From a virus (lineage: Duplodnaviria > Caudoviricetes), in IMG/VR virus record IMGVR_UViG_3300031565_014860, positions 1-54,033 of that record: DNA of 54,033 bases; one strand, given 5' to 3'. The translations under genes were made by a program, and so were the position numbers. Shown one piece after another: positions 1 through 42,947 of the stretch. Every line of letters starts with the position of its first letter. The first letter of the stretch is position 1. The notes under the pieces are model-generated. The model did no database searches. It had not been told where the DNA came from and worked only from the letters and a program-made list of their open reading frames with translations.

Positions 1-960
1 TTATCCTCTTTTTAAATGTTCTTTAACAGTTATAAATTTATTAGTTAATATTTTTGCTCTTTGTGCTTTACGTGAATCTGCTAAAGTAAATGGTATATAA
101 TTCTTTATAGGATTCTTTTTAGTATATGATATTGATAATCCTATAAGATTAGCTACATGTTCTAATGATATTGCAGTTTCTGTACCTATATTATATATTT
201 CACATTCTTTTTTATGATTTAATAAATACTTCATAGATTCTAAAAAACTATTTGTTACATCATTAACATGTATAAAATCTCGCATTGTAGTCTTAGCATA
301 TAGTTTAAATTTTTCTGGTTTAAATGTTCTTTTCAATAATGATTTTTTATCATTTCGTTCTTTCATCCATTTCATTTGAGTTATTATATTTGCATATTCT
401 CCTTTATGTTCTTCTCTATCACCATATACGCTAAATAATCTTAATCCTATAGATGATATATTATATACATCATGATACATTCGTGCAAATCGTTCTATTG
501 CATATCTACATTCTGTGTAATAATCTGTAGGTTTAATATGTTGTGTTTCTGTAAATGTAGGAATATTTCCATTATATAATGAACTAGTTGATGCATAAAC
601 TACAGGACATTCATTTTCTTTTGCTAATTCTAATATACTTATCCAATCATTAATTGTTTTTCCTACTAATTCAGGATTATTTTTATACATTGGTGATGAA
701 GAAGGCATTCCAAGATGAAATATTCCATCATACTTTTTATATTTTTCAATTAGTTGTTTTTCATTACTATTTATTATATATATACTATTTTCTGTAGTAT
801 TATAATTTACTTTAATTCGTCTATCTCTAAATGAAACATTTTTTAGTATTCCTAATGACCCATCATCTATTATATCTATATAATGTCCTTGTTTATGTAA
901 TTCTTCAACTATATGACTTCCAATAAATCCTAAGCCACCTGTTACTAAATACTTTCCCAT
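1..960 (-). CDS. NAD-dependent sugar-nucleotide epimerase/dehydratase (extended SDR)
   Basis: Rossmann motif VTGGLGFIGSH, YASTSSLY, GLRLFSVYG, RDFIHVND, YNIGT. The catalytic motif reads YTECR (YxxxR rather than YxxxK). Start moved to ATG at 960, behind an AGGTGA RBS. Confidence 0.9.
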   Translation of the reverse strand: MGKYLVTGGLGFIGSHIVEELHKQGHYIDIIDDGSLGILKNVSFRDRRIKVNYNTTENSIYIINSNEKQLIEKYKKYDGIFHLGMPSSSPMYKNNPELVGKTINDWISILELAKENECPVVYASTSSLYNGNIPTFTETQHIKPTDYYTECRYAIERFARMYHDVYNISSIGLRLFSVYGDREEHKGEYANIITQMKWMKERNDKKSLLKRTFKPEKFKLYAKTTMRDFIHVNDVTNSFLESMKYLLNHKKECEIYNIGTETAISLEHVANLIGLSISYTKKNPIKNYIPFTLADSRKAQRAKILTNKFITVKEHLKRG

Positions 961-964
961 ATAA

Positions 965-1591
965 TCACCTCTTTTTTGCAACAAATAATTCCCAATTTTT
1001 ATTAGATATAAATGGATTGTGTTGCAATTCTTCTAATTTTTCATTATCTAATATTAATCCTGATTGTGTTATTTGGTTGTTCCACCAGTCTCTAGACCTA
1101 AGAGTGCAATGTTCTATTGTTTCATCTTTTCTTTCTCCTAAATGTATAGACATAACTACCCATTTAGATGCTACTCTTTTTATTTCTTGTAATGTAAATT
1201 GAATATCTTCTTCTGGAATATGTTCTAATACTTCAAAACTAGTCACTAAATCATATCTATTATTAGAATATGGTAATATTTCTTTTCCTAGTGTTACTTG
1301 TGTTAACCAATCACGAATTGCTGATGGACATGCTCTAATTGCATAATCAGATATATCACAACCATATGCTTCTATAAAAACACTTCTATATAAATATACA
1401 TTAAATCCTTTTGCACATCCACAATCTAATACACGAGTCGGTTTAAAATATGGATATAATCCCATAGTTTGTGTATCAATAACATTAAGTAATCCATGAA
1501 ATGTATATCCTTCATAATTAGATTTTCCTAAGGAAACTCCTTGTTCAAAATATGTTATATTATAAAACTCTCTTAAATCTACTTTTTTCAT
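965..1591 (-). CDS. Class I SAM-dependent methyltransferase
   Basis: VLDCGCAKG (motif I), GCDISDYA, YDLVTSFEVLEHI; resembles glycan-cluster methyltransferases. Confidence 0.88.
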   Translation of the reverse strand: MKKVDLREFYNITYFEQGVSLGKSNYEGYTFHGLLNVIDTQTMGLYPYFKPTRVLDCGCAKGFNVYLYRSVFIEAYGCDISDYAIRACPSAIRDWLTQVTLGKEILPYSNNRYDLVTSFEVLEHIPEEDIQFTLQEIKRVASKWVVMSIHLGERKDETIEHCTLRSRDWWNNQITQSGLILDNEKLEELQHNPFISNKNWELFVAKKR

Positions 1592-3512: not shown

Positions 3513-5696
3513 TCACTTCATCCATTTATCTAAAGATTCACTTTTTTCTTCCCATCCTAATGCTGCGAATATAGGAGATGTTTTATTATCAATTGTTATT
3601 TCAATCATTTTTTCCCAATTAATAATTAAATCTTTTGGAGGAATATCTTTATATGCAATTCTTTTAGTATCTGGTTTATCTTTTATCTTTGCATAAATAT
3701 ATTTAATACTATCTCCGGGTTGTATATTCATATTTAAATTTTCATTTGACCATTTAGCAGCTTCAACATGAAATGTTTTTTTAATATATGTATCTATTGG
3801 TCTATTTATCATTGTTGGTATTGCAATATCATTTATAGAAATACCATATATTTCTTCTTTCTTTTTATTAATATATTCTTTACATTCTTTTTTTGTTTTA
3901 TTATCAAGAATCATTTTTAATAATTCTTCTTGAATTTGTTTTCCAAATTTATTAAAATTACTTTTTACTATCTCAAATCCAGATACATCAAAATAATTGA
4001 TTTCTTTTTTTCCATCATGAACTAACCAACCAGCATATCTCTTTTTAGCACCAGTCTTAATATCTCCTTTTTTAGAACTAAAGAATACATTTTTAAATAT
4101 TCCTTTATATTCATTGCTTATCCATTCATTTTTTTCACCTCCTTTATCTTGTACAAATTTATTATATCCTTCATTTGTAATCTTTAATAATTTGTCTTTA
4201 ACTATTAATATTTCATTTAAATCAGTTAATCCTGTCTCAACAAAACATGAATCTGTATCTCCATATATTACAGAATATCCTGCATCTTCAATTGATTTAA
4301 TAGTATGTTTAATTATTTCCTGTCCCATAGATGTTATACAACCAGCAACATTATAATCACAAACTCTATTATAATTAAAACCACAATATCCATATATACT
4401 ATTTGCTACTCTTTTAATTGCATATTGCATAACATAAAAGGTATCATATTCTTTACTTCCTTTTTTAAATTGTAATTGTTTTATTGTATATGTTTCTCTT
4501 AATTTAATTAAATACTTACATATTTTTGGATTAGTTCCTTCATCGGTTGAAAATGAAAATCCATTAATTAAATTTCCAGGTCTAATAGTATCAAAACTCA
4601 TATTAAACTGACAAATAATAGAAGGATATAGTCTTTTTAAATCAAATATTATTACTCCAGTATGTACTCCTGGCTCAGACTTCATTACAAATGCACCATC
4701 ATATGGTACTTTTTCTGTTTTAACTAATGTTGGTAATACATCATTTTTATATCTTAATAATAATATATCATCCATTGTCCCCGAATATGCTAATTTAGAC
4801 CATACACATCCTACATGTATTCTTAAATTATTATAAAATTCAACAATATGTTTTTTCTGGTCAATTTCTACAGCTAATGCAACATGTTCTCTACAACAAG
4901 AAATAACCTCATCAATATTTTTAATACTAAAATCTTTTGGCTCATGTTTTTGTTTATTTAATTCTAACATAGCTATTTTTTCTAATGAATATCCGCCTAA
5001 TTTATTAGGTTGCATTTTTCTATAATAATCACATAAATCAAAATTAATTACTCCTTTTATATTAAGTCTTTTTTTATTTCTTTCTCTTTTACCAGAAGAT
5101 ACTAATTTAAAAGGACTTAATCCACTCATATCTATATCATTATTATTACCAAAATTAATAATATAAGGCAAATCAAATCCATTTATATTCCATCCTGTTA
5201 TAAGTTCTGGTCTTCTATCTTTTATAAATTCTATAAATTTAAGAATAACTTCTTTTTTATCTTTAAATTTAAATATTTTTCCCTTTTCATCTTTACTTAT
5301 ACTATCTTCTATTCCCAATGCAAAAGTTACATCATGTTCCATATCAGAATCCTGACAAGTTATACATAATATAGGCTCAGGAGTAGTAATAGTATCTAAA
5401 CATTTATTTGTTTCAATATCAATACAACATACTCTTGGTATTTCAATTGGAAGAGGAATACTATGTCTATCTATTAAATATCTTTGAGCATAAGGATATA
5501 CATCTGCTTCATATGTTTTTGGATAATTTCCTCTTAATATATGAATATCTGCTGGTGTTTCTACCGTTATTTTATTTTTATTATTATCATAAAAATAAGG
5601 GGAAAAATCAGATATTCTTTTTACATATCTTTTTCTATCAGAATCTCTACCAATAATTACAATATCTTTTTTACCTTGTTGTTCAAATATAATCAT
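3513..5696 (-). CDS. polB: Family B DNA polymerase
   Basis: ExoI DIET, ExoII GWNINGFDLPYI, motif A FDLKRLYPSII, motif B KRVANSIYG, motif C YGDTDS, KKRY; C-terminal clamp-binding-like SESLDKWMK. Confidence 0.96.
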   Translation of the reverse strand: MIIFEQQGKKDIVIIGRDSDRKRYVKRISDFSPYFYDNNKNKITVETPADIHILRGNYPKTYEADVYPYAQRYLIDRHSIPLPIEIPRVCCIDIETNKCLDTITTPEPILCITCQDSDMEHDVTFALGIEDSISKDEKGKIFKFKDKKEVILKFIEFIKDRRPELITGWNINGFDLPYIINFGNNNDIDMSGLSPFKLVSSGKRERNKKRLNIKGVINFDLCDYYRKMQPNKLGGYSLEKIAMLELNKQKHEPKDFSIKNIDEVISCCREHVALAVEIDQKKHIVEFYNNLRIHVGCVWSKLAYSGTMDDILLLRYKNDVLPTLVKTEKVPYDGAFVMKSEPGVHTGVIIFDLKRLYPSIICQFNMSFDTIRPGNLINGFSFSTDEGTNPKICKYLIKLRETYTIKQLQFKKGSKEYDTFYVMQYAIKRVANSIYGYCGFNYNRVCDYNVAGCITSMGQEIIKHTIKSIEDAGYSVIYGDTDSCFVETGLTDLNEILIVKDKLLKITNEGYNKFVQDKGGEKNEWISNEYKGIFKNVFFSSKKGDIKTGAKKRYAGWLVHDGKKEINYFDVSGFEIVKSNFNKFGKQIQEELLKMILDNKTKKECKEYINKKKEEIYGISINDIAIPTMINRPIDTYIKKTFHVEAAKWSNENLNMNIQPGDSIKYIYAKIKDKPDTKRIAYKDIPPKDLIINWEKMIEITIDNKTSPIFAALGWEEKSESLDKWMK

Positions 5697-6748
5697 ATAA
5701 AAAACTCCTTTAATGATTTAGTCTTATGTTTATTAAAATGTCCATAATGTATATTTAATGTTTCCTCTAATCCATTTTTTCTTACTTCATCTATAAAAGA
5801 AAAATACTGTTTCTTATCTTTACAAAATGATTTATATGCTTCTATATCTTTAGATAATATTCTTAATATTTTTTGATATTTTATTATTTTATATAAATTA
5901 TGTAATCCTATTAATCTTTCGTTTTCACAAAAATCATTAATTGTAAATTTTTTGCATACTGGACAATCGCATGGCAATTCTTGTATTAATGTATCATTTC
6001 TATTTGAAAGTTTCAAAATATCTCTATTATACATATCAATCCAAAATCTTCTATTAGACATTCCATATATTGCAGAAGAAGAATCAAACGTTATTGGTAT
6101 ATCATACGCTTTTGATAAATAATTAATTATAGGCATTGTATTCTTTCCACTTAATCCAAAAAAATGAACTGGTTTTTTATATTCTTTAATTTGTTCCATA
6201 AATATAGTAAGAACTTGTGTTAAAAGCATTTTCTTTCCAGATAAAGGAACCAGTCCTCCTATTGCATATCCATCAAATAATTCAAAATTTCCCATTTCTT
6301 TATATTTATTAATTATAAAAGATTGTTCAATTAAACTATGTCCTTGTATAACTGCATATAGTTTTATATCTTTCTTTTCTTTTAAAGTAAGATATGCTTT
6401 TTCTACTGTTTTTATTTGTTTTTTTCTTTTTGTTTCTATAGAATCATTTTCTAATATAGGATAATCAAAAGTAAATCCGATATCAGCATTTTTCTCTTGC
6501 CATTGTAATACTTTTTCAGGACTTAATATTGAATTCAAGGTCATATTTTGAAATCCACCAGAATCTGCGAATAAAATAAAATCCTTGGGAATCTTAAATT
6601 TTTCTCTATAATTATAATCTGATATTCCATAATATGTTGATATTAATCCTGTATTATAAGTAAAAGGAGAGCTTTCTTCCCACCAATTATCTTGCATTTG
6701 TCCAGATGGTAATACTGGAATAAATTTACCTATTGTTTCTTTTGACAT
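5693..6748 (-). CDS. TGT-family guanine transglycosylase, probable viral DNA preQ0-insertion enzyme (DpdA-like)
   Basis: DSGGFQ, FDYP, AVIQG, AIGGLVP (archaeal-TGT-like pocket), VHFFG, TFDSSS, Zn site CDCPVC...HN; no PUA domain; adjacent to queC/folE/queE/queD and overlapping the polB start. Confidence 0.85.
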   Translation of the reverse strand: MSKETIGKFIPVLPSGQMQDNWWEESSPFTYNTGLISTYYGISDYNYREKFKIPKDFILFADSGGFQNMTLNSILSPEKVLQWQEKNADIGFTFDYPILENDSIETKRKKQIKTVEKAYLTLKEKKDIKLYAVIQGHSLIEQSFIINKYKEMGNFELFDGYAIGGLVPLSGKKMLLTQVLTIFMEQIKEYKKPVHFFGLSGKNTMPIINYLSKAYDIPITFDSSSAIYGMSNRRFWIDMYNRDILKLSNRNDTLIQELPCDCPVCKKFTINDFCENERLIGLHNLYKIIKYQKILRILSKDIEAYKSFCKDKKQYFSFIDEVRKNGLEETLNIHYGHFNKHKTKSLKEFFI

Positions 6749-6953: not shown

Positions 6954-7616
6954 TTAATCATCCATATATTTAATTGGGTCTTTCATTCCTGCTTTTTTAA
7001 ATGCTTCTAATCTTTCAGTACAGGAACCACATTTCCCACATGCTTTCTCTTTTCCTTTATAACATGTCCAAGTTAAAGAATAATCTACTCCTAATTTTTT
7101 ACCTATTATAACAATATCTCCTTTATCAATATCACAATAAGGAGCTAAAAAATATACCTTATTCCAATCGCATAAAGATATAGCAGTTTCCATTGCATCT
7201 ATAAATTCTTTTCTACAATCAGGATATATATCATGGTCTCCTGCATGCGCTCCATAAAATAAATATTTTGCACCAATTCCTATAGCATAAGATGTTGCTA
7301 AAGATATCATAACCATATTTCTATTTGGGACTACTGTTTGTTTCATATTTTCGTCTGCATAATTTCCTTCTGGAACTTCCCAATCATCTCTTGTAAGACA
7401 ACTTGGAGCTATTTCATTTAAAATATTTAAATCTAATATTTTATGAGGAACATTTAATTGTTTACATGTTTTTTTTGCATATTCTAATTCTTTATTATGT
7501 TTTTGATTATAATCGAAACTTAAAGCAAAAGTATCAAATCCAAGTGATTTAACATCATATAATAATGTTGTAGAATCCATTCCTCCACTTAATATTATTA
7601 CTGCTTTTTCTTTCAT
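6954..7616 (-). CDS. queC: 7-cyano-7-deazaguanine (preQ0) synthase
   Basis: LSGGMDSTT, FDYNQKH, VPNRN, YPDCR, TWTCY, CGKCGSC. Confidence 0.96.
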   Translation of the reverse strand: MKEKAVIILSGGMDSTTLLYDVKSLGFDTFALSFDYNQKHNKELEYAKKTCKQLNVPHKILDLNILNEIAPSCLTRDDWEVPEGNYADENMKQTVVPNRNMVMISLATSYAIGIGAKYLFYGAHAGDHDIYPDCRKEFIDAMETAISLCDWNKVYFLAPYCDIDKGDIVIIGKKLGVDYSLTWTCYKGKEKACGKCGSCTERLEAFKKAGMKDPIKYMDD

Positions 7617-8284
7617 TTTATCAACTCCAAAAACTCTTGCCTTGCACTTGCATTCTTTTTAAATTGACCCCCAAGTTTACTTGTAGTTGTATTGCTTGTT
7701 TGGTCCTGAACTCCCCTAGTTTTAACACAAAAATGAGTTGCATTCATTACAATAGCTATGTCTTCTGTATCTAATATATAACTTAAAGCATAATAAATTT
7801 GTTCGGTTAATCTTTCTTGTATTTGAGGTCTTCTAGAAAAATAATCTACTATTCTATTAAATTTACTTAATCCTATAATCTTTTTATTTGGAATATAAGC
7901 AATATGTGCTACTCCTTGAAATGTAACAAAATGATGTTCACATGTACTTGATACATTAATATTTTTAATTAAAATCATTTCATCATAATTCATTTTATTT
8001 TCTACTGTTGTTATTTTAGGAAAGTTTTTATCTTCTAATCCCCAAAACAATTCATTAACAAACATTTTTGCAATTCTTTTTGGAGTTTCTTTTAAACTAT
8101 CATCTTTTAAATCTAAATTTAAATCATTCATAATATCGGTAAAACTTTCTTCAATAAACTTTATTCTATCCTCAGTGGCGAAAAATTTTCCTTTTATTGT
8201 TGGAGTATTCTTACCTAATTTTCTTAAATAAGCATTTACGCTTTCTCCTAATTCTTTATCTGTTTTTGTTATATCTAAAACCAT
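7613..8284 (-). CDS. folE: GTP cyclohydrolase I
   Basis: ETPKRIAKM, STCEHH, GLSKFNR, RPQIQERLT, HFCVKTRG. Confidence 0.96.
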   Translation of the reverse strand: MVLDITKTDKELGESVNAYLRKLGKNTPTIKGKFFATEDRIKFIEESFTDIMNDLNLDLKDDSLKETPKRIAKMFVNELFWGLEDKNFPKITTVENKMNYDEMILIKNINVSSTCEHHFVTFQGVAHIAYIPNKKIIGLSKFNRIVDYFSRRPQIQERLTEQIYYALSYILDTEDIAIVMNATHFCVKTRGVQDQTSNTTTSKLGGQFKKNASARQEFLELIK

Positions 8285-8956
8285 TTAAACACCTCTTTTA
8301 TTTCCCCATAACCATATTTGTAATCTTGGTGAAAATCCATATTTATATTTCTTACATTTTTCTACTAACCATAATGAAATTTCTTTCAATATAGAATCTT
8401 CTACTCCTGCTGGCATTAAATATACATATTTAATTAAATTTTCATTGTTTTTAATAATATTATGCCAAAATATAAAATCTTTTTTTGTACCAATTACAAA
8501 TTTCCAATATATTTTTTGATTTCCTAATACTAATTCCATTTCTCTAAAATTAAGTATAGGTATAGTATGTTTCTTAAGAGATATAATTATTGTGTCTATA
8601 TGTTTTATTGAGCCTATTCTAGATATTAATGTTCCATTAGTTTCTATATGAAATATATATTTAAATCTAGGTTCATCTCTACATAATACTTTATAGATAG
8701 TTTCAATTTCTCTTATTTGTAATAATGGTTCTCCACCAGTCCATATAATTAATGTGTTTCCTTCTTCTATTATTCTATTTACAACTTGTTGAATAGTTAA
8801 TTTTTTTCCTTTAAATGCATAAGTTGAATCACAATCAAATCCAGCAGTTTCTTTAGTACAATTTAAATTACATCCAGCTAATCTTACAAAAGTACAAGGA
8901 AGACCCATAGCAGGTCCTTCTCCTTGTATTGAACTAAATATTTCATTCACATTCAT
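8285..8956 (-). CDS. queE: 7-carboxy-7-deazaguanine synthase (radical SAM)
   Basis: EIFSSIQGEG, FVRLAGCNLNC...CDS, TGGEPLLQ, IETNGT, SPRLQ. Confidence 0.94.
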   Translation of the reverse strand: MNVNEIFSSIQGEGPAMGLPCTFVRLAGCNLNCTKETAGFDCDSTYAFKGKKLTIQQVVNRIIEEGNTLIIWTGGEPLLQIREIETIYKVLCRDEPRFKYIFHIETNGTLISRIGSIKHIDTIIISLKKHTIPILNFREMELVLGNQKIYWKFVIGTKKDFIFWHNIIKNNENLIKYVYLMPAGVEDSILKEISLWLVEKCKKYKYGFSPRLQIWLWGNKRGV

Positions 8957-9317
8957 AATACTCAGCCCAACTATCTGCAGTTTCCCATACCCGTACTTTT
9001 TCTACTGATATATCTAACTCTTTTAAAGTTAAAACTGCAGATAAATTAATATACATTTCTCTAGCCATATTTTCTGCTGTTGGATTATTACTCATAATAT
9101 CATTTAAATATTTATGGTCATATTTATTATTAATCCAAGAATTCATTGTTGCTGATAATGTTTTAAAATCTATTATCATTCCATTTTTTGATAATTTATC
9201 CCCAATAATAAACAATTCAATTTTATATGAATGTCCATGAATATTAGCACATACTCCTTTATAATCATTTAAATTATGTGCAGCTTCAAATGTTATACTT
9301 TTTCTTAATCTGAACAT
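8943..9317 (-). CDS. queD: 6-carboxy-5,6,7,8-tetrahydropterin synthase
   Basis: FEAAH, CANIHGHSY, IIDF, DHKYLND, PTAEN, VWET. Confidence 0.96.
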   Translation of the reverse strand: MFRLRKSITFEAAHNLNDYKGVCANIHGHSYKIELFIIGDKLSKNGMIIDFKTLSATMNSWINNKYDHKYLNDIMSNNPTAENMAREMYINLSAVLTLKELDISVEKVRVWETADSWAEYYECE

Positions 9318-9673
9318 TTAATTTCCTCCGTTAATGGTTCCCAAATACTATGTTGTATAATATCTTGATTACATAATAGATATATAACTACTCTAGAATG
9401 AATATCTTTTAATTCATCTTCAATTAAATGACAAGTATTCATTATATCTGTATATTGTTTTAATGAAGTAATATCAAGAGCTATATTATATTTATTATCA
9501 CTCATTGCAAAATGATGGGTTATACACGATTGTAATTGCCTTGGAGTTAAACTAAAATATACATCAAAATCATGTACTCCTGTATCTCTTAATTCTTTAG
9601 AAAGTGCTCGTATCATCATTGATTTTCCAGTGGCACCTGTTCCTATTATTTTTACAAATTGTATTTCTACCAT
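9305..9673 (-). CDS. Small P-loop-containing protein of unknown function
   Basis: IIGTGATGKS near the N-terminus; GGTGA RBS; overlaps the queD start. Confidence 0.55.
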   Translation of the reverse strand: MVEIQFVKIIGTGATGKSMMIRALSKELRDTGVHDFDVYFSLTPRQLQSCITHHFAMSDNKYNIALDITSLKQYTDIMNTCHLIEDELKDIHSRVVIYLLCNQDIIQHSIWEPLTEEIKCSD

Positions 9674-9888: not shown

Positions 9889-10362
9889 TTATTTCATCCA
9901 GCTATCTAATGTTCTAATAGGGTCTTTGGGTTTTTCTATAGTTATATTATATTTTTTAAGTATAGTCATATCTGCCCCTATAAAAAATAATAATCTTTTT
10001 AATGTTTCTTTATTTTCTAATTGTTTTAATATTATGTGTTTATTTGCTTTTAATTCATTATTGGTCCAATGAAAATAAGTTTGTGCTTCTTTAAGTATAA
10101 AATCATATTCCTGTTCTATTTCTTTTTGGGCTTTAATATATCTAATAAATGGTGGTCTTTGTTTTGGTATTAAATTCATATATAGTTTTTCTAACATATC
10201 TTGATGTATCCAAAATACATAATTATTTAATTCTATAGATATTATTTTAGCATCTTCAATAGAACTCATTGATAAGAATTTATTAACTATAACTGGACTC
10301 CATGTTTTATCTAGTTCTCCTTTCTTTGTAAATATAATTTTTAATGCTTCATATAAATTCAT
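9889..10362 (-). CDS. Probable clamp-loader accessory subunit (T4 gp62-like / minimal RFC-L)
   Basis: Follows the RFC-like ATPase; WSPVIVNKFLSM...LNNY...IPKQRPPFIRYIK; C-terminal clamp-binding-like IRTLDSWMK. Confidence 0.6.
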   Translation of the reverse strand: MNLYEALKIIFTKKGELDKTWSPVIVNKFLSMSSIEDAKIISIELNNYVFWIHQDMLEKLYMNLIPKQRPPFIRYIKAQKEIEQEYDFILKEAQTYFHWTNNELKANKHIILKQLENKETLKRLLFFIGADMTILKKYNITIEKPKDPIRTLDSWMK

Positions 10363-10568: not shown

Positions 10569-11495
10569 TTATTTAAACAATTCTATAAATTTCACACCGA
10601 CTGCAAATAATTGTATTTCTTTATCTGCAGCAGGAGCTCTATCTACTTCTGCTATATAGTATAGCAATTTAACAAATCTATCATTAAACCTTTCTTTTTC
10701 TTTAATTATTTCATCATTAGTTATATTATCTATTAGACGAATTAATAAAGTATGAGGGTCTAGATTGTTCTCTATTACAAACTTTCTAACTGTATATATA
10801 TTTCCTTCTTTAAGAAGTTCATAATATTTATCTTCTACTTCTGTTTGTGTTTTTACTTTTTCTAACAAAATATTAGGAGATAGTTCTTGAAGCTTATTTA
10901 TCATAGAGCGCATATCTGGATAATATATATCTATAATTTTATCTATTGCTTCTTCTTCAATATTTTCTTTTGGTATATTTTCTTGTTCTAAAATATACAA
11001 TAATCTATTTTTTATATCTTCTCTAGGTAATTCATTTATTCTAATTATTGTACATCTAGACTTTATAGGGTCACATATTTTACTTTCACTATTAGCAGTC
11101 AATAAGAATTTACAATTTTTATTATATTTTTCCATTATAAATCTTAATGCTTCTTGACTTGCAGTGAGCATACCATCAAATTCATCCATATGAATAAATC
11201 TAGGAATATTATTATCACTGCGCATAGATGATGCAAAATCTATAATTTTTCCTCTAATTGTTTCAAGTTTTCTTTCATCACTGCTGTTTAATATTAAACA
11301 ATCTTTAGATTTTAGTTCATTTTGAATTGCTTTACAAATTGTTGTTTTTCCCGTTCCTGGACATTTAGATATAAACAAAAAATGAGGCATAGACATTGGA
11401 TTTTCTATTGCCTTTTTTATTACAGATACATCTAATCCTACAATGTCATCTAATATTTTAGGTCTGTACTTTTCTGTCCACATAATGTTTTTCAT
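10569..11495 (-). CDS. Clamp-loader AAA+ ATPase (RFC small subunit / gp44-like)
   Basis: WTEKYRP, PGTGKTT, LNSSDER, MDEFDGM, SQEALR, PIKSRC, DMRSMIN. Start moved to 11495 behind GGAGG. Confidence 0.93.
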   Translation of the reverse strand: MKNIMWTEKYRPKILDDIVGLDVSVIKKAIENPMSMPHFLFISKCPGTGKTTICKAIQNELKSKDCLILNSSDERKLETIRGKIIDFASSMRSDNNIPRFIHMDEFDGMLTASQEALRFIMEKYNKNCKFLLTANSESKICDPIKSRCTIIRINELPREDIKNRLLYILEQENIPKENIEEEAIDKIIDIYYPDMRSMINKLQELSPNILLEKVKTQTEVEDKYYELLKEGNIYTVRKFVIENNLDPHTLLIRLIDNITNDEIIKEKERFNDRFVKLLYYIAEVDRAPAADKEIQLFAVGVKFIELFK

Positions 11496-11496
11496 A

Positions 11497-12198
11497 TTAA
11501 TCCTCCTCAACTTTAGGAGCAATAATAAATAATGAATTAATGTTCCCACATTTTTCAACTAATCCTATAGGATATTTATCTCCAAATTTTAAGGTTACAA
11601 TAGGAGATGTTAAACAACAAACAGTTGCCTTTAAAAAGTTATGTTGAACAGTTGTTTTTGCTTCTATTTCTTCTTCTATTTGTACTATTCGTTTTATTGT
11701 ATTTAATCCAAGGTCAACCTTTATAATTAACTGTTTATTAATTGTTTCGAAACTTATATCTGGATTTTTACCTAATTCTCCATCTTTAATTATATCTTGT
11801 AATAATTCTGTATTTATAGTTTTAGAAAATGGAAAGACTATATCTACATCTTTAGGTCTTTCTTCAATATAATCAGGGTCAGCTAAAACAATATCAAATT
11901 CTGTATTTGTTTCTTTCATATACAATACATTTTTTTCTATTTTAAATTTTATATCTTCTTTGAATCGTTTAGCACATTTGAATAACCATGTTAAATCTTT
12001 TACTGCTATTTCTCCTATAGGTTTATAGTCTTTTATTTTATCTATGTCTAACCTACATTTACACCATTTAAAGTTTCCTGCAGTGGCTACTTTAGCTATT
12101 ATTTCCCCTTCTTTAAAGTCTAATATAGCTTTATCTATTAATCCTTTAAATGAAGATTTTTCTAAAAAATCACATAATGTATTTTTATCTATTATCAT
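11497..12198 (-). CDS. Sliding clamp (PCNA-like)
   Basis: 233 aa, two-domain beta pattern, C-terminal KYPIGL...FIIAPKVEED typical of PCNA; directly upstream of the clamp loader. Confidence 0.85.
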   Translation of the reverse strand: MIIDKNTLCDFLEKSSFKGLIDKAILDFKEGEIIAKVATAGNFKWCKCRLDIDKIKDYKPIGEIAVKDLTWLFKCAKRFKEDIKFKIEKNVLYMKETNTEFDIVLADPDYIEERPKDVDIVFPFSKTINTELLQDIIKDGELGKNPDISFETINKQLIIKVDLGLNTIKRIVQIEEEIEAKTTVQHNFLKATVCCLTSPIVTLKFGDKYPIGLVEKCGNINSLFIIAPKVEED

Positions 12199-12213: not shown

Positions 12214-13071
12214 TTATTTTAATCCTACGAATATGTCACTTGTATCCCAAACTGCATCTCCTTTAGTAACAGTAGCAAATTTTATTATTTTTCCTTCTTT
12301 TGTTAAATCAAATTTAGATTTATCAATTTTTGCATTAAATTCTACTTTTCCTAATCCTATACTTTTGGTACATATTATTCTTTGATGCATTGCTTGATTC
12401 ATATTTGCTTTAACCATTGCCATATCTGTTGTTACCATAAAATCTTCATGTGCTATATAGAATTTATCCATTGGTATCGATTTTAATAAATCTATAGTTT
12501 CTGAAAACTTTCTAGCACGGCTTATCCAATATCTTTGCGTAACTCCACCATCTACTTCTAAATTTTTCTCTACTCTCATAACGTATTCACATATTTTTAA
12601 AAATCTAGAAATACCATCTAATACAATACATCCATAATCTTGTTCATTCTTATTTACAAACATAGCAATTGCTTTTATCTTAGATAACATTATATCATAA
12701 CTAGGGTCTCCATTATCATCAGCAACATATGCAGATAATACTTCTATTTTATCTGAGTTTTTATGGTATGAATTAAATACTGGGAAATCACCACCATCTA
12801 AATCAATAAACATAGTTTTTTTATCTATTTTTTCACAATAGTCCATTACAATTCCAGTTTTACCAGTACCATCTTGTCCTAACACAAGACAATTCATTGT
12901 GTTTTTTTGATTCTTTTTTCTTTCTTTAAATGCAGAAATATCATCTAATACTTGCTCATAAGTATATGCAGGATTAATATGTTCCTCAACTACTGGTAAT
13001 TTTTTATCTAATTTTTCTCCCCAATCAATTTCCTTTTTAGGTTCTTTTTCTATTTCTACCATAATTATCAC
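12214..13071 (-). CDS. RecA-fold P-loop ATPase (Sak4/AAA_24-like recombinase)
   Basis: Walker A GQDGTGKT, FIDLDGG, Walker B IVLDGIS, YIAHE; near the SSB-like gene. Confidence 0.7.
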   Translation of the reverse strand: MIIMVEIEKEPKKEIDWGEKLDKKLPVVEEHINPAYTYEQVLDDISAFKERKKNQKNTMNCLVLGQDGTGKTGIVMDYCEKIDKKTMFIDLDGGDFPVFNSYHKNSDKIEVLSAYVADDNGDPSYDIMLSKIKAIAMFVNKNEQDYGCIVLDGISRFLKICEYVMRVEKNLEVDGGVTQRYWISRARKFSETIDLLKSIPMDKFYIAHEDFMVTTDMAMVKANMNQAMHQRIICTKSIGLGKVEFNAKIDKSKFDLTKEGKIIKFATVTKGDAVWDTSDIFVGLK

Positions 13072-13275
13072 CTATTTTTTTATTACATATTTTATTTTTC
13101 TAAATCTTAATGCTTTTTTATGAATTATCTTATATCCCATATTAACTAAGTGTTTATATAGGGTAACATAAGCTATTTTTGTTTTTCCTGTTATTTCAGA
13201 AAGAGGAATCCCATCGGGATGGGACTCTAACATTTTTTGTAATTCCTCTTTTTTTTGTTCTGTTAATACTACCAT
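13072..13275 (-). CDS. Small HTH DNA-binding protein
   Basis: GIPLSEITGKTKIAYVTLYKHL helix-turn-helix pattern; likely start MVVLTEQ at 13275. Confidence 0.6.
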   Translation of the reverse strand: MVVLTEQKKEELQKMLESHPDGIPLSEITGKTKIAYVTLYKHLVNMGYKIIHKKALRFRKIKYVIKK

Positions 13276-13276
13276 T

Positions 13277-14356
13277 TTATTCCCATTGTTCTTTTTCTTC
13301 TTTAGACATGGATAAATTTCTATATACTTCTTTAGAGTATATTCCACTAACTGCTATTGTGCTTCCTCTATCATTAGTTCCTGGTTTACCAATCATCCAT
13401 ATTTCTGCTTTTTCTGGAAAATCAATTTTTATATGCTCAGATAAAAAACAAGCATATGGAGGTATTATATTTCCTTCTTCATCATCAAATTCCATAGTAT
13501 CATCATCAACTCTTAACATACTATTAGTAAGTCTTCCTGTTGGTAATAATATTTCATTAACGACTACTTTCATAATAGCAAAATCGTTAAAATTTGAATG
13601 TGATTCACACCATTCTTTATAACTTCCTAACACTAAATTATATTTTTTAAATGTTGTTTCAAATAGTGATAGTATTTCGTCTTCTTTTAATTCAGTTTCA
13701 TTTTTAAATTCTGTTGTTCCTGAATCATTAAATAGCAATAATGTTTCGGAAGATGTTTGTTTTTTAAATACATCAACTTTTGTCCATTTAAACATAGGAA
13801 TTGGTATTTTAGAATTTTCTTTTCTAAATGAAACAATAGCGGGTATAATTTTTCCACTTTCAAATTTAACGGCACCAAATGCTGTTTTTTGAAAGTCTTC
13901 TTTTGGAATAACTTTACCAATCCACTTTATTCCTGTTTTATCAATTAATGTTCCTTCTTCTGATTGTATATAATCTTGTTTAATTTTCCATCCTTGTAGT
14001 TTTTCAAACTTATCTTGAGGAATATAGTATAATAATTCTCCTTCTTTATTTACCATTCCTTCTTTTATTGCCGTTTCTGGATTTTTATCTACTATTGCTT
14101 GCGCTGTTGCTCTTCTTTTTTTAACCATATCTAAAGCATTTGTTGCTCCTATAAATACTATTTCAACTTCTTCTCCCTTTGAAGATAATATTTTTCTATA
14201 TGATGCTCTAAATCTAGAAAAAGCCATTGATTTTCTATCCTTTTCTGATATTGATGGGTCTAGTTTATTAAATTCATCATTTAGTTCATTTTCTAACTCT
14301 TCTGTTTTTTTATTTGTTTTGGCTACTATTTTTTCTATTGTTCCCATTACATCCAT
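13277..14356 (-). CDS. Probable RPA-like ssDNA-binding protein (OB folds)
   Basis: Helical N-terminus, beta-rich C-terminal OB-like region, acidic tail; lies in the replication operon. Start MDVMG at 14356. Confidence 0.55.
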   Translation of the reverse strand: MDVMGTIEKIVAKTNKKTEELENELNDEFNKLDPSISEKDRKSMAFSRFRASYRKILSSKGEEVEIVFIGATNALDMVKKRRATAQAIVDKNPETAIKEGMVNKEGELLYYIPQDKFEKLQGWKIKQDYIQSEEGTLIDKTGIKWIGKVIPKEDFQKTAFGAVKFESGKIIPAIVSFRKENSKIPIPMFKWTKVDVFKKQTSSETLLLFNDSGTTEFKNETELKEDEILSLFETTFKKYNLVLGSYKEWCESHSNFNDFAIMKVVVNEILLPTGRLTNSMLRVDDDTMEFDDEEGNIIPPYACFLSEHIKIDFPEKAEIWMIGKPGTNDRGSTIAVSGIYSKEVYRNLSMSKEEKEQWE

Positions 14357-14575: not shown

Positions 14576-16129
14576 TTAATGTATATATTGTAAGATATGC
14601 TTTTTAATATCTACATTTAAAATCTCTTCGCTTAAACATCTTTTTCCACACATAGCATCATATATATGCGATTCTATTCCTGCTGATATTATATTAAATA
14701 CTTTTAATGGTCTATCTCTAAGTAATCTATATGCTCTATATACTCGTTGTCTTATTTTTGCAGGATTCCATGGAATATCAAAGTTTATAATTGTATCAAC
14801 AAATGGCATATCTACTCCATACGCCATTGTATCTGTAGTAACCAAATATTTATAATTTTTTCTAAAATCTTCTTTTATATCTGTCTTGTCTCTTTTTGAT
14901 TCTCCGGTTGCTATTATACTATTTGGTAATTTTTCTAATATTATATGAGCCATTTTAGCATATTTGGTAAATATAACTATCTTTTCATCATTTAGCTCAT
15001 TTAATATAAGCAATAGTTCATCTAACTTTGGTGACGATTCTGTTATTAAATCTTTATTTATATCTTCTATTGACTTTGCGATTGATGTTTTTATTAATAA
15101 TGTACTATCACAAACCATATGTAAAAAAGTAAAATCTTGTATTTGTCGTTTTCCTTTTCTCAAATCATCAATAATAATACGTTCTAATTTTATTTGTTCT
15201 TTACTTAATTCTACAAATCGTTCATATATTATTAATTCAGGAGGAACTTTTACATCACTCATTTTTCTTCTTATTGTACATTCCATAAATCGTTCTTGGA
15301 ATTTATCTAAATTTTTGTATCCTACAATTCTATGGTCTTCAAAAACACAATATTTCCAAAACTCAGATTTAGTCATCCATTCTGGATTAATAATATTGCA
15401 TATATTGAAAGCATCTTCTAACTTATTTTCTATTGGTGTTCCTGTTAATCCATATAAATGACTAGGAGCAAATTGTTTAGATAGCTTAGTTCTTTTTGCT
15501 TTTCTATTTTTCAGATAAGACATTTCGTCATATATCAATATATTATTTTTTATTATTGGTAGTAATAACATAAAATCTGCTAGTATTTGTTCATAATTAA
15601 TAATTAATATCTTAGGAGGATTAATATATATCTTTTTTCTCATATAAAGAGGACCTTCAACTATTGTACACTCTTCTCCAAAAAAATCAGATACTGATAT
15701 TTTCCACTGTTTCTTAATTGATTTAGGACAGCAAATAATTATATGTTTTATATGTTCATTTTTATGCAAATATATAGATATCGCAAGCGATTGTATTGTT
15801 TTTCCTAATCCACAATCATCTGCAATAAGTAATCGTTCAGTAATCACACCTCTTGCAACACAATCTACTTGAAAATCATATAAAAATGGAAATGTTTTCA
15901 ATATATCTTCTTTAACATCTTTAATATCATTATCAATATCTGTTATTTCAAATCCCATATCTTTTACTTTTTTAATATTATTTTGAGTTAATGGAATTTC
16001 CCATCTTAAATATACAGGATTCCAAATATGTCCAGATATCTGTTTTATATTATAAGTAGTTATTGCAGATGTTAATGTTCTATCATATTCAATACATAAC
16101 TTTCCGTTGTTAATATATGCAGTTTTCAT
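14576..16129 (-). CDS. SNF2/SF2 helicase (HARP-like)
   Basis: DDCGLGKT, INYE, IYDEMS, LTGTPIEN, KIVIFT, GVDM, DIPWNP, QRVYRAYR. Confidence 0.9.
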   Translation of the reverse strand: MKTAYINNGKLCIEYDRTLTSAITTYNIKQISGHIWNPVYLRWEIPLTQNNIKKVKDMGFEITDIDNDIKDVKEDILKTFPFLYDFQVDCVARGVITERLLIADDCGLGKTIQSLAISIYLHKNEHIKHIIICCPKSIKKQWKISVSDFFGEECTIVEGPLYMRKKIYINPPKILIINYEQILADFMLLLPIIKNNILIYDEMSYLKNRKAKRTKLSKQFAPSHLYGLTGTPIENKLEDAFNICNIINPEWMTKSEFWKYCVFEDHRIVGYKNLDKFQERFMECTIRRKMSDVKVPPELIIYERFVELSKEQIKLERIIIDDLRKGKRQIQDFTFLHMVCDSTLLIKTSIAKSIEDINKDLITESSPKLDELLLILNELNDEKIVIFTKYAKMAHIILEKLPNSIIATGESKRDKTDIKEDFRKNYKYLVTTDTMAYGVDMPFVDTIINFDIPWNPAKIRQRVYRAYRLLRDRPLKVFNIISAGIESHIYDAMCGKRCLSEEILNVDIKKHILQYIH

Positions 16130-19789: not shown

Positions 19790-20515
19790 TTAATATCTTA
19801 TTTCAAATCCATAACACGAACTTACAGATTTAATATTATTTCCATCGTAATATGTAGGAATATTTTTCATTATTTTATCTTTTTGAGGTTCAATGTAATA
19901 TATACCTTCAGTCGTGTTTACTGCAATAAGAGCATGTCCATTAATAGTATATTCTAGTTCTGTAAAACACGATACAATTCCATTCTTTTCAAATACATCT
20001 ATTACTTTATTTGTAAATTCTGTGCAGTCAAAGGTATCAACATCATATGATAATGTATCGGTTTTATCATTTCTTAATATTGAGGATATTTCTTGTGTTG
20101 TTGGTATATGATATTCTAATTTTTTCCTAGCTTCTAATTGGTCATATTGAATATCCATATATGATATCTCTTGTCGCAATTCATCAATAGTTCTATTTGA
20201 TTCTGATAAGTAATATGTCAAAATTTGATTTTCATTAGTCAAGTTATAATTATGATTCATACTTAACTTATATTCATAAGTAAGTCTATTATTATCTTGT
20301 AATAAATCATAACTATATATTGTACTATTAATTAATAATAATGATATAGTACAATAAACCAATATTCCTAATATTATAACCTTATATGATGTAACAGGAA
20401 TATTTTCTACCGGAATATACATATGATATCCAGTAGTAGTTGGTAATTCTATTTGGTTTTCTTTAATAAATCCTTTAGTTATCATAGTATCTATCCATAG
20501 TATCTGCCCATTCAT
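19790..20515 (-). CDS. Membrane-anchored coiled-coil protein with C-terminal papain/transglutaminase-like Cys domain
   Basis: Hydrophobic helix VIILGILVYCTISLLLI, coiled coil, then FDCTEF...GHALIAV...YYIEPQ (Cys-His-Glu). Confidence 0.65.
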   Translation of the reverse strand: MNGQILWIDTMITKGFIKENQIELPTTTGYHMYIPVENIPVTSYKVIILGILVYCTISLLLINSTIYSYDLLQDNNRLTYEYKLSMNHNYNLTNENQILTYYLSESNRTIDELRQEISYMDIQYDQLEARKKLEYHIPTTQEISSILRNDKTDTLSYDVDTFDCTEFTNKVIDVFEKNGIVSCFTELEYTINGHALIAVNTTEGIYYIEPQKDKIMKNIPTYYDGNNIKSVSSCYGFEIRY

Positions 20516-21522
20516 CTGGTATTTTTTCTATATTCCATTTTTTTGTACTAAATCTAGATATTGTTATTATATAGGTATAGTTAATTCTACAATAAACTAT
20601 TCTAATATATAATATCATATCTATTATTCTTTTTAATCGTTCAATCATATTAGTAGTTCTTATCTTATCACCTTTTTTATATTTGTATATTACTCTAATA
20701 CTATACTATTACATTATTCTCCTTGTAGTTAAAACAGTCATCACATAAATTATAATCAAGTTCATCTAACTTAGTATGACATCTATCGCCTACATCAAAT
20801 ATACGACAACATTTACTACATCTATTATATTCATTACATTTATATGAACTTATAGCAATCCCTAACATCCATTCTTTATTTTTCATTTGCTTACCTACTT
20901 TTCGTGCTTTACGAACAGCTGCTTTTATTCATAAAAGTTCTACTCTTCTAATTTTATCTTCAAATGGTTCATTAAATATCTCATAGCAAGATAGACACTG
21001 AACATATCCATTTCCGAATATTGCTCTTCGTTCTACCCTCCTCTTATGTATTTGTGAACATGTTGGACATATTATAAAGTTAATGTTTATCTTCTCTTTT
21101 ACCTTTTTTCTTTTTAGTATCACTAAAGCTAAAATCTCTAGGTACAGGATATATACAAGAGCATTGTGCTTCAAATGGAGTACCATCTTCCTTTAATAAT
21201 CGTTTTCGTCTTGCACATTTCTTTCCTAGTAAATCTAAACAGGTATGTTGATTAAATGTACATCCTCTAGTTGGTCTTTCTAAATGTACACACACATCTT
21301 CTTCTATTGTAAAAGAATCGTGTACAATTCCTTCTTCTATTGTTCTAACCGGTACTATATTTCTAGACATATTATCTTCCTCCGTCTTCGTCTATAAACA
21401 TATATCTATCTTTACGTTTTAATCGTTTAATAATAAACGCTTGAATTTTATGAAATATACTATTAGATTTCATATGAATTTACCTGAATTTAAATAATAA
21501 CTATTATATGAGTTTTAAGACT

Positions 21523-22538: not shown

Positions 22539-23090
22539 TTAATTGTTATATTTTTTACATATCCAATACACTATTGGTTCTAATTTCATTTTTCTATCTT
22601 TATTTAATATTGAACATATACATCTTCCCTTATGTCCTCTAGGCCTGGTGCATCTATAATTAATATTTTCACTTACAAATACTTTATTACATTGTCTTAT
22701 ATACACACCGTGGTCTATATATGCTACTGAAATGGGTTCTAATATTAATAACATCTCTTTGCGTTCTTCTCTTCTTATTACCATATTGCTTTTTGACATA
22801 AGTTTATAATTGAACACCGTATTTGGATTATAGTATACTAATTTGTCTATTGGTGCATTTTCCCAAATTGCTAATGTTTTCGAAATGGCAAATATTATTT
22901 TACTTTTACCCAATACATTTATACATCTTCCTTTGTGTCCTTTTCTACGATTACATCTATATTGTTTAAACTTTTTATCACATTGAATAAAAGATTTACT
23001 TAAACAATTAACTATTTCTCGTTTTTCTTGTTTTGTTAAAGGAATGGGTTTATTATAATTCTTTGCTTCTTTTAACTCAATAGTAGTCAT
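22539..23090 (-). CDS. Protein with duplicated C-C-H-C zinc-finger-like motif
   Basis: CDKKFKQYRCNRRKGHKGRCI and CNKVF...YRCTRPRGHKGRCI. Confidence 0.7.
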   Translation of the reverse strand: MTTIELKEAKNYNKPIPLTKQEKREIVNCLSKSFIQCDKKFKQYRCNRRKGHKGRCINVLGKSKIIFAISKTLAIWENAPIDKLVYYNPNTVFNYKLMSKSNMVIRREERKEMLLILEPISVAYIDHGVYIRQCNKVFVSENINYRCTRPRGHKGRCICSILNKDRKMKLEPIVYWICKKYNN

Positions 23091-42473: not shown

Positions 42474-42947
42474 ATGGGGCTTAGTGAAATAGGAATATCA
42501 ATTCGTGATGATTTAAGAAATGCATTGTCTGACCCTTTAGGGGACCCTGTAAGTAATACTGATTCTAAAAGACAATGGATACATTATGATTCTCTCAATA
42601 GATTAGAAGGAATAGGAAAAACACCATGTATATTTATCGAGCGTGTAGGTACAGATGAAAGAGTAATGACTGTAGGAACAGCACAAACTGATGATTTTTT
42701 TAGATATAATATTAATGTAGTAGTTAGTAATACTGATAGAGGAGCTATTGATGGAATTACAATAAATAATTCTGAGGAAATATTAGATAAATTAGTAGAT
42801 AAAATAGATGCTCGTTTGAAGTCAGTGTATGTTACAATTGACCCAGATTTTATAATTTCGCTTATTCCATTGACTGTAGGAGGGACGTGGAATTATAATA
42901 AAAATACTAAAGCATGTACAAGCGGATGGTTGGTGCAAAAAGTATGA
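42474..42947 (+). CDS. Tail terminator / tail completion protein
   Basis: 157 aa, PCIFIE...YNINVVV...LVDKIDARL pattern; position before the tail tube gene. Confidence 0.55.
   Translation: MGLSEIGISIRDDLRNALSDPLGDPVSNTDSKRQWIHYDSLNRLEGIGKTPCIFIERVGTDERVMTVGTAQTDDFFRYNINVVVSNTDRGAIDGITINNSEEILDKLVDKIDARLKSVYVTIDPDFIISLIPLTVGGTWNYNKNTKACTSGWLVQKV

Follow-up and report, generated by a model that had tools for sequence, protein, structure and literature searches.

Why would a viral enzyme that may exchange guanine in DNA end in the same kind of short tail as the viral DNA polymerase? The question is raised by a virus record in IMG/VR (IMGVR_UViG_3300031565_014860; Duplodnaviria, Caudoviricetes), a single contig of 54,033 bases and 28% GC, the whole of which we call the window. 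On its minus strand, from 12.2 down to 3.5 kb, genes for a sliding clamp, an AAA+ clamp loader, a 157-aa open reading frame (ORF), a 122-aa ORF, QueD, QueE, FolE, QueC, a protein of the tRNA-guanine transglycosylase (TGT) family, and a family-B DNA polymerase (PolB) follow one another in that order. We found that the TGT-family protein, which resembles the viral 7-deazaguanine-inserting enzyme DpdA, carries a C-terminal tail that recurs in its family, tracks the tail of the PolB encoded on the same contig, and has a counterpart of different sequence in the cultured Halovirus HVTV-1. The reading that we prefer, with a probability of roughly 0.7, is that this tail docks the DpdA-like protein on the viral clamp and thereby couples insertion of dPreQ0 to replication, clamp binding and the DNA substrate being the parts of it that we infer.

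Three proteins of the window bear tails of this kind, and their genes and tails are as follows.

5693 to 6748, minus strand: TGT-superfamily DpdA-like guanine transglycosylase, 351 aa (Pfam TGT, 9e-13)
5696 to 5722, minus strand: C-terminal tail T343-K-S-L-K-E-F-F-I351 of this protein (end HKTKSLKEFFI), the proposed clamp-binding motif, like the PCNA-interacting peptide (PIP) and like the T4 epitope
3513 to 5696, minus strand: PolB, T4 gp43-like (Pfam DNA_pol_B, 1e-37, plus an exonuclease domain; about 25% identity to cyanophage gp43)
3516 to 3536, minus strand: PolB tail S-L-D-K-W-M-K (end KSESLDKWMK)
9889 to 10362, minus strand: T4 gp62-family small clamp-loader subunit, 157 aa; its gene immediately follows that of the gp44-like protein, the arrangement seen in T4
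9892 to 9912, minus strand: tail T-L-D-S-W-M-K of the gp62-like protein (end PIRTLDSWMK)

Among the 197 ORFs of at least 40 aa in the window, only these three end in [ST]Lxx[FW][FM]x, which bears out the initial annotation of this DNA, made from the sequence alone, where it named PolB and a clamp-loader subunit as the other bearers of such tails. A loose regular expression, [LIM]xx[FWY][FLMIWYV]x0-3$, matched 20 of the same ORFs; by reading, the other 17 are antisense frames, short hydrophobic frames, or frames without the [ST]Lxx[FW] form, and they include an SNF2 helicase (14576-16129, …HILQYIH) and a 57-aa ORF (20475-20648, …TMDRYYDN). When set against the PIP consensus Q-x-x-[LIM]-x-x-[FYW]-[FYW], the DpdA-like tail matches at L and FF and not at Q, just as had been annotated. 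The 157-aa protein had no match in Pfam, PHROGs, NCBIfam, or the PDB sequence search. However, ORFs in four related loci (L086, L094, L104, and L114) are matched by both this protein and T4 gp62, which places it in the gp62 family, so that the tail is shared with the replicative polymerase and a clamp-loader subunit. Homologues of the gp62-like protein end in GLSRWA, SGLDLFM, VRGIFG, KTLFDF, and KTLLDF.

The AlphaFold2 (AF2) model of the DpdA-like protein has a predicted local distance difference test score (pLDDT) of 92, with a TIM-barrel core above 90. At the C terminus this score falls to 70 at residues 331 to 340, about 52 at residues 341 to 350, and 42 at residue 351, with a short helix at residues 346 to 350 after coil. 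As modelled, such a low-scoring end behind a confident barrel looks as a flexibly tethered short linear motif would be expected to look, and the linker before the tail varies in both length and sequence among homologues.

Is the tail a feature of the family or an accident of one protein? A search of the full library returned 754 homologues at an E value of ≤1e-3, represented by 149 listed sequences besides the query with mutual identity of ≤50%, and 139 of these 149 were judged C-terminally complete and are the basis of the motif counts. A stricter first expression, which matched 27 of 150, was judged too narrow and was replaced by motifs with controls and by alignment-free similarity. The core form, [LIMV]xx[FWY]x0-3$, was found in 66 of the 139 representatives, compared to an expected 14.7 from truncated pseudo-termini and 13.4 ± 3.5 from shuffling of the last 30 residues (maximum of 28 in 1000 shuffles). 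The form with glutamine, Qxx[LIMV]xx[FWY]x0-3$, was found in 20 of them, compared to 0.5 and 0.6 ± 0.8, respectively, and enrichment over the controls ranges from 4.5-fold for the core form to 40-fold for the Q form. The initial annotation had staked its proposal on conservation of the tail in close homologues, and by reading a comparable tail is kept in 11 of the 12 closest representatives (SLERFFQ, NIFGF, TIFDF, SLNYY, and GLGEFM are examples).

We also drew 123 related loci from IMG/VR and metagenomes. In these fetched loci, two or more aromatic residues stand among the last six in 53 of 98 DpdA homologues and 28 of 37 PolB proteins, with corresponding counts of 2/52 for RFC-S, 3/35 for QueC, 7/63 for FolE, 0/52 for QueE, 6/37 for QueD, and 86/851 for unassigned ORFs of at least 150 aa. 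Of the unassigned ORF termini, 8.9% match the loose motif, and the Que proteins of the same contigs lack it. Thus, judged on sequence, the tail is a feature of this family and occurs more often than chance would give.

Do the tails of DpdA and PolB resemble each other most within one contig? Among the fetched loci, 41 contigs encode a full-length DpdA homologue together with a PolB whose C-terminal part is present. We scored the last nine residues of the two proteins with a shift-tolerant BLOSUM62 comparison, dereplicated the contigs by DpdA identity, and compared pairs from the same contig with 20,000 permutations, with these results.

90% dereplication: n = 29, same-contig score 14.2, permuted score 8.1, z = 6.1
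60% dereplication: n = 21, same-contig score 14.6, permuted score 7.5, z = 6.1
45% dereplication: n = 15, same-contig score 15.5, permuted score 8.3, z = 5.5

The observed same-contig score was reached by 0 of the 20,000 permutations. End-anchored scoring without shifts was much weaker (z of 1.6, 2.2, and 2.7), because the number of residues after the aromatic differs between tails. Control pairings, which point to only a small share for composition, gave z values of 0.1 (DpdA and QueC), −0.4 (DpdA and QueE), −2.2 (DpdA and QueD), 2.5 (DpdA and RFC-S), 2.6 (DpdA and FolE), and 0.3 (PolB and RFC-S), with absolute scores of 1.5 to 5.7 for all of them. Tails from single loci show the range of forms.

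L073: DpdA SKKINNLFKF, PolB TKKINSLFKF
L009: DpdA KQIGIFS, PolB KQKGIFDE, gp62-like protein VRGIFG
L061: DpdA MNEFF, PolB IDEFF
L085: DpdA EKFFKF, PolB NKFFSFGK
L027: DpdA NKLLDY, PolB QSLVSY

Since DpdA and PolB are not homologous and yet, from one genome to the next, match each other in a private tail, the tails would most simply share one receptor.

Two arrangements of DpdA-like genes in the fetched loci are recorded here as observations in their own right. The contigs L048 and L051 combine three DpdA-like ORFs (398, 378, and 385 aa) in a single contig, with genes for a clamp and a clamp loader alongside, and two of the three carry NLF-type tails (…NLFRSW and …NLFGWQNL). Many contigs from L082 to L123 encode a gp43 of about 836 aa, gp44 and gp62 homologues, and a DpdA-like gene of 416 to 426 aa that lies 1.5 to 3 kb from gp43; in this group, for which no cultured relative was found, the DpdA tails (…EFFKF, …KFFKF) mirror those of gp43 (…KFFSFGK, …KFFQF).

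A cultured haloarchaeal virus offers a view of the same pattern outside this clade. Halovirus HVTV-1 has preQ1 in its DNA, and its protein HVTV1_69 has been named DpdA4, according to passages of PMC10516641. In the HVTV-1 genome (NC_020158.1), the ending VLx[FWY] occurs in 6 of 594 ORFs, compared to 0.43 expected, and all six lie in the replication region from 33.8 to 52.3 kb (loci L126, L128, and L134 to L140).

HVTV1_69: DpdA4, tail NVLEF
HVTV1_87: clamp loader, tail SVLDF
HVTV1_89: DNA methyltransferase, tail DVLDF
HVTV1_91: PolB, tail GVLSW
HVTV1_92: HNH endonuclease, tail DVLDY
HVTV1_99: tail DVLGF

The tail type of the polymerase is therefore found on two different DNA-modifying enzymes of this virus, and GC-rich HVTV-1 appears to be an independent replicate of the pattern with a different tail sequence. 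A further candidate is the DpdA1-type protein of Escherichia phage Seurat (KM236243.1, L127, 10609-11529), which ends in RVMELF and whose gene lies directly upstream of genes for a 253-aa "sliding clamp subunit" and a 679-aa ORF (22724-24763). Most of its 120 closest homologues (P0153 to P0272; 68 to 99% identical) end in QELF, a terminus that is a lead only, since all of these homologues are at least 68% identical. No other Seurat ORF has a tail of the RVMELF or QELF type, and this terminus may be a clamp-binding end of another type.

Which receptor do the tails of the window share? The genes at the upstream end of the module bear on this question.

11497 to 12198, minus strand: sliding clamp of the PCNA/gp45 type, 233 aa (from the AF2 model and Foldseek)
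10569 to 11558, minus strand: AAA+ clamp-loader subunit, like the RFC small subunit and T4 gp44 (phrog_168, 1.8e-55; NCBIfam RFC small subunit, 7e-53)

The true start of the loader gene is probably an internal ATG near 11495. The clamp ORF had no match in Pfam, PHROGs, or the PDB sequence search, and a protein homologue search with it recovered only itself. An AF2 model made with seven homologues from the fetched loci had a pLDDT of 87.5 and a predicted template-modelling (TM) score of 0.83. Foldseek placed archaeal PCNAs on top for this model (E value of 2e-14, TM scores of 0.78 to 0.85), and clamp-client complexes are among the fold matches, namely, 1isq (RFC-L peptide), 1rxm (FEN-1 C-terminal region), and 3a2f (PolB). 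The archaeal NCBIfam model for "DNA polymerase sliding clamp" (NF002222) matched over its full length at 7.6e-8 and 32.1 bits, under its cut-off of 207, and alignment to T4 gp45 with hhalign gave an E value of 3e-4 at a probability of 38%. By this model, the ORF has a PCNA-type clamp fold, and the receptor that the tails have in common is most likely the clamp.

The nearest known systems are the clamp clients of T4 and of archaea and eukaryotes. Part of a T4 review (PMC2988020) describes the C termini of gp43, gp55, and gp33 as interchangeable clamp-binding epitopes on flexible linkers; gp43 ends in …KASLDFLFG and gp55 in SLDFLYEAND (T4 epitope SLDFL[FY]). The window proteins are like these clients in having a short hydrophobic/acidic C-terminal motif and a flexible linker, common to unrelated proteins of one virus, in the tails themselves (SLDKWMK, TLDSWMK, and SLKEFFI, compared to SLDFLFG and SLDFLYEAND), and in gene order, where 45-44-62-regA-43 of T4 matches 45-44-62-…-43 of the window. 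They differ in that no base-exchanging DNA-modification enzyme is among the known T4 clients, which comprise the polymerase and late-transcription factors, that T4 gp62 lacks such a tail, and that the window clamp is closer to archaeal PCNA than to gp45 in the fold search. Among the archaeal and eukaryotic clients, PolB, RFC-L, and FEN-1 dock C termini resembling Q-x-x-[LIM]-x-x-[FY]-[FY] in the PCNA pocket. The 20 DpdA homologues with the Q form share this likeness, whereas Q is missing from all three window tails. The archaeal PIP box, in whose terms the initial annotation had cast the tail, is hence too narrow a frame, given the T4 gene order, the gp62-family protein, and the resemblance of the tails to the gp43/gp55 epitope.

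We also considered what the tail-bearing enzyme is. Its gene is preceded by those of a complete set of preQ0 enzymes, and the placement of this set between the clamp and clamp-loader genes and polB, noted in the initial annotation, is confirmed by Pfam and by gene order.

6954 to 9317, minus strand: preQ0 pathway genes, with QueC at 6954-7616, FolE at 7613-8284, QueE at 8285-8956, and QueD at 8943-9317

Pfam identified these four as QueC (1.7e-70), GTP_cyclohydroI (3.8e-65), Radical_SAM/Fer4_12 (QueE-like), and PTPS (4e-35, QueD). The DpdA-like protein itself exceeded the cut-offs of Pfam TGT (PF01702; 48.4 bits, compared to 26.3) and NCBIfam tgt_general (TIGR00449; 62.2 bits, compared to 47.6), and it fell short of that of the TgtA equivalog TIGR00432 (68.5 bits, compared to 350). 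Its top PDB match was ArcTGT 1iq8, both by sequence (3e-14) and by fold, and the top Foldseek matches of the model were ArcTGT and bacterial and human TGT (E values of 1e-12 to 1e-10, TM scores of 0.63 to 0.71). Residues D62, D222, C260, C262, C265, and H283 are invariant across 50 homologues; D62 in DSGGFQ (the DSGxFQ motif) aligns with Asp95 of 1iq8, and the zinc-site segment C260-x-C262-x-x-C265…H283 is aligned as well. At 351 aa, compared to 582 aa for 1iq8_A, the protein aligns over the catalytic domain only, and this length indicates that the PUA/tRNA-binding C-terminal domains of ArcTGT are absent.

A TGT homologue encoded together with preQ0 synthesis genes in a virus is what marks viral DpdA, and the window has FolE, QueD, QueE, and QueC directly upstream and terminase and tail genes elsewhere in the record. 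In passages of PMC6884629 and PMC10516641, viral TGT homologues with preQ0 genes are treated as DNA-modifying DpdA enzymes. The DpdA-like protein is like viral DpdA1 to DpdA4 in being a TGT-fold enzyme encoded with these four genes and unlike them in belonging to a clade without a cultured member. From the que set and the place of the gene in the replication module, we infer that this TGT-superfamily member works like viral DpdA, with DNA as its substrate. No QueF or ArcS-like gene was seen in the cluster, so dPreQ0 is the simplest predicted product.

Profile A1 matched the Seurat-type DpdA1 homologue at 6e-10 and found no match for HVTV-1 DpdA4 and none in Campylobacter phage CP220. DpdA3, the subfamily with complete G replacement, was looked for in CP220 as a possible home of the clade and was not located with this profile; CPT_0068, which lies beside QueD, is not TGT-like (hhalign probability of 0.3%). 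Two further features are recorded here. The gp43 of CP220 (FN667788.1, L143, 355-3003) ends in …TLEEW, which resembles a clamp epitope, and the N terminus of the DpdA-like protein has a [YF][IV]P[ASVC] motif (window positions 6709-6723, minus strand; residues K9 to V13, KFIPV, a β-strand in the model); 13 of 150 representatives have this motif in 2 to 5 copies, P0007 in five (alignment A2).

How might these parts work together? FolE, QueD, QueE, and QueC of the virus would supply preQ0, and the DpdA-like enzyme would swap guanine in DNA for the 7-deazaguanine base. On its flexible extension, TKSLKEFFI would insert into the hydrophobic client pocket of the clamp at 11497-12198, so that DpdA would sit on an unoccupied protomer within the clamp trimer or on clamps left on the new duplex. 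DpdA would in this way be a further tool on the clamp toolbelt, and the exchange of guanine for preQ0 would take place at the fork or shortly behind it, tied to replication both spatially and temporally. The TGA stop of dpdA (5693-5695) overlaps the ATG of polB (5694-5696) in the ATGA junction that had been annotated, and this overlap would add coexpression of DpdA and PolB. Among the fetched loci, dpdA overlaps polB or lies ≤60 nucleotides upstream of it in 15 of 41 unique cases; the order of clamp, loader, gp62, que genes, dpdA, and polB is retained in L001 and L015, and the que gene order of the window recurs in the relatives L001, L002, and L003. The proposal of a clamp-docking tail made in the initial annotation has therefore gained from family enrichment, covariation with PolB, the PCNA fold, and HVTV-1, while binding, action at the fork, and a DNA substrate are still predictions of it.

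The only complex prediction made, that of the clamp with DpdA residues 312 to 351, supports docking of DpdA on the clamp, but weakly; the interface score (ipSAE) was 0.40 (median of 0.51, 0.40, and 0.37), compared to 0.02 for the best of three controls, with at least 77% contact agreement between runs and a partner pLDDT of at least 56. In calibration, 58 of 80 solved complexes and 2 of 110 mismatched pairs passed, and the passes with scores of ≤0.60 were only 7 of those 80 solved complexes plus both of the mismatched pairs. With in-house alignments and solved PCNA-PIP complexes in existence, such a pass may reflect likeness only. Several observations weigh against docking. In the window tail, the canonical Q is replaced by T343, and in the family the core motif is missing in 73 of the 139 representatives, with P0003 (…RQVKL), L004 (…EHRGLL), and L005 as tail-less examples. 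In other viruses, the DpdA4-like protein of the HF2-like virus Serpecor1 ends in ESPAYL and its PolB in QTGLAAFC, so that no tail is common to both, and the DpdA of Cellulophaga phage phi3ST:2 (241 aa) has no such tail, though a β-clamp gene is nearby. The covariation is also open to other influences, since mild same-contig similarity in two of the controls (DpdA with RFC-S, and DpdA with FolE) indicates that composition or lineage contributes a little, and relatedness among contigs is not fully removed by the permutation test. As to the enzyme, the curated bacterial DpdA model NF041059 failed (26.2 bits, compared to a cut-off of 200), no PADLOC family matched, and no cultured close relative was found, the best isolate matches being hypothetical proteins at 20.5 to 25.9% identity, mostly from phages of >200 kb; the case for a DNA substrate is for these reasons drawn from context. 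Lastly, passages of a 2026 study (PMC13216743) report that clamp binding of the T4 α-glucosyltransferase (α-GT) is not the main determinant of modification level or of α- versus β-glucosylation, so tethering need not be functionally dominant.

Could the tails instead be bound by another hub of the replisome, such as the clamp loader, a single-stranded DNA-binding protein, the helicase/primase, or an accessory surface of PolB? Covariation shows that a receptor is shared and not which one it is, the predicted complex with the clamp is weak, and, according to part of the T4 review cited above (PMC2988020), the gp43 tail has several places at which it attaches to gp45. However, PolB and a clamp-loader subunit are the classic client set of PCNA/gp45, a hydrophobic-x-x-aromatic sequence at the extreme C terminus, often with Q at position −3, has the form of the PIP and T4 epitopes, and a clamp with the PCNA fold is encoded in the same module. 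Thus, we consider a receptor other than the clamp unlikely.

A different doubt concerns the substrate, because the best sequence and fold matches of the enzyme are tRNA enzymes (ArcTGT 1iq8 and bacterial TGT, with TgtA as the top NCBIfam match) and the curated bacterial DpdA model failed. These findings would fit an ArcTGT-like viral tRNA-guanine transglycosylase that acts on host or viral tRNA and whose tail is unrelated to DNA modification. In contrast, such an enzyme would have to do without the C-terminal domains of ArcTGT, its gene lies within a replication module and overlaps polB, its tail is held in common with DNA-bound replisome proteins, profile A1 detects the Seurat-type DpdA1, and the published viral TGT homologues with preQ0 genes are DpdA in the passages of PMC6884629 and PMC10516641. 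On balance, a tRNA enzyme seems very unlikely. We find it barely credible that the tail has no partner and merely results from composition or local structure (for example, an amphipathic helix end or a dimer contact, in a virus whose AT-rich genome favours F, K, I, and L). For this reading, the genome has 28% GC, the loose motif is not rare at unassigned termini, and two control pairings reached z values of about 2.5. Against it, homologues from many genomes carry the motif more often than the position and shuffle controls predict, Que proteins encoded on the same contigs lack it, and it follows the PolB tail contig by contig. The tail also sits outside the folded domain, where the pLDDT is low, and the pattern recurs with another sequence in GC-rich HVTV-1.

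To return to a clamp-docked DpdA, how new is such an enzyme? The literature search found no paper tying DpdA or 7-deazaguanine enzymes to a sliding clamp, PCNA, a PIP motif, or the replisome, and no TGT-family enzyme as a PCNA or clamp client in the literature searched. Neither a clamp nor a DpdA C-terminal motif is mentioned in the main-text portions of PMC6884629, PMC10516641, PMC10484667, and PMC7544227 that the search covered, supplementary files lying outside it. According to portions of PMC10516641 and PMC6884629, 7-deazaguanine insertion by viral DpdA is post-replicative, and the former gives modification levels from <0.1% to 100% of G between DpdA subfamilies. The link between DpdA and the clamp is thus apparently new, as the initial annotation had supposed; clamp-bound DNA modification itself has precedents in T4 α-GT and DNMT1.

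T4 α-GT binds gp45 and has been proposed to modify DNA concomitantly with replication (passages of PMC13216743, citing Sommer et al. 2004). It is like the proposed DpdA in being a phage DNA-hypermodification enzyme on a phage sliding clamp, and unlike it in glucosylating hydroxymethylcytosine rather than exchanging a base and in having no SLDFL-type C-terminal tail. In T4 (L043), both the β-glucosyltransferase and α-GT (401-1456 and 12625-13827) lack such a tail, and because α-GT is a reported gp45 binder all the same, another surface must mediate its contact with gp45. For eukaryotes, an interaction of DNMT1 with PCNA (PMC5264654) and propagation of methylation by PCNA-bound enzymes (PMC9570017) are described in parts of these two sources. 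Here, too, a DNA-modifying enzyme is brought to nascent DNA by a sliding clamp, though the system is eukaryotic and the reaction is methyl transfer. DNMT1 is a large protein and carries its clamp motif in the N-terminal region.

Clamp tethering might be a general, as yet unrecognised design principle of viral DNA-modification enzymes, with independent DpdA lineages each having gained the clamp tail of their own polymerase, a tentative idea to which we give slightly less than even odds. These lineages would be the uncultured clade, including a large group of T4-like marine contigs, the DpdA4 of HVTV-1, and perhaps the DpdA1 of the Queuovirinae (QELF). The same idea would take in the viral DNA methyltransferase HVTV1_89, and modification would be replication-coupled, not merely post-replicative. 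If so, the type of tail could serve to predict whether a modification enzyme works with a viral clamp or with that of the host, and it might help to explain the unequal modification levels of the DpdA subfamilies. Viral 7-deazaguanine DNA modification protects genomes from restriction. A clamp tail offers a mechanism by which the whole genome could be covered in one infection cycle, with the enzyme delivered to new duplex by clamps left behind, and a base-exchange enzyme would join the client list of sliding clamps. For uncultured viruses, a tail resembling that of the cognate polymerase could serve as an annotation rule for replisome-associated proteins. HVTV-1, which is cultured and whose modification has been measured, is a system in which the idea is testable now.

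One further gene lies within the replication module.

9305 to 9673, minus strand: 122-aa ORF between the gp62-like gene and QueD, with the Walker-A/P-loop-like motif GTGATGKS

This ORF had no match in Pfam, PHROGs, or NCBIfam. Further ORFs of note are at 1-1591 (minus strand) and 42914-44101 (plus strand); by eye and without a family search, the ORFs at 1-984 and 965-1591, both on the minus strand, read as an NAD-dependent epimerase/dehydratase and an S-adenosylmethionine methyltransferase. PHROG matches of the structural genes are weak or absent, and the right half of the genome has a weak terminase match, tail proteins, and, among the structural genes, a glycosyltransferase (phrog_2170, 3e-37).

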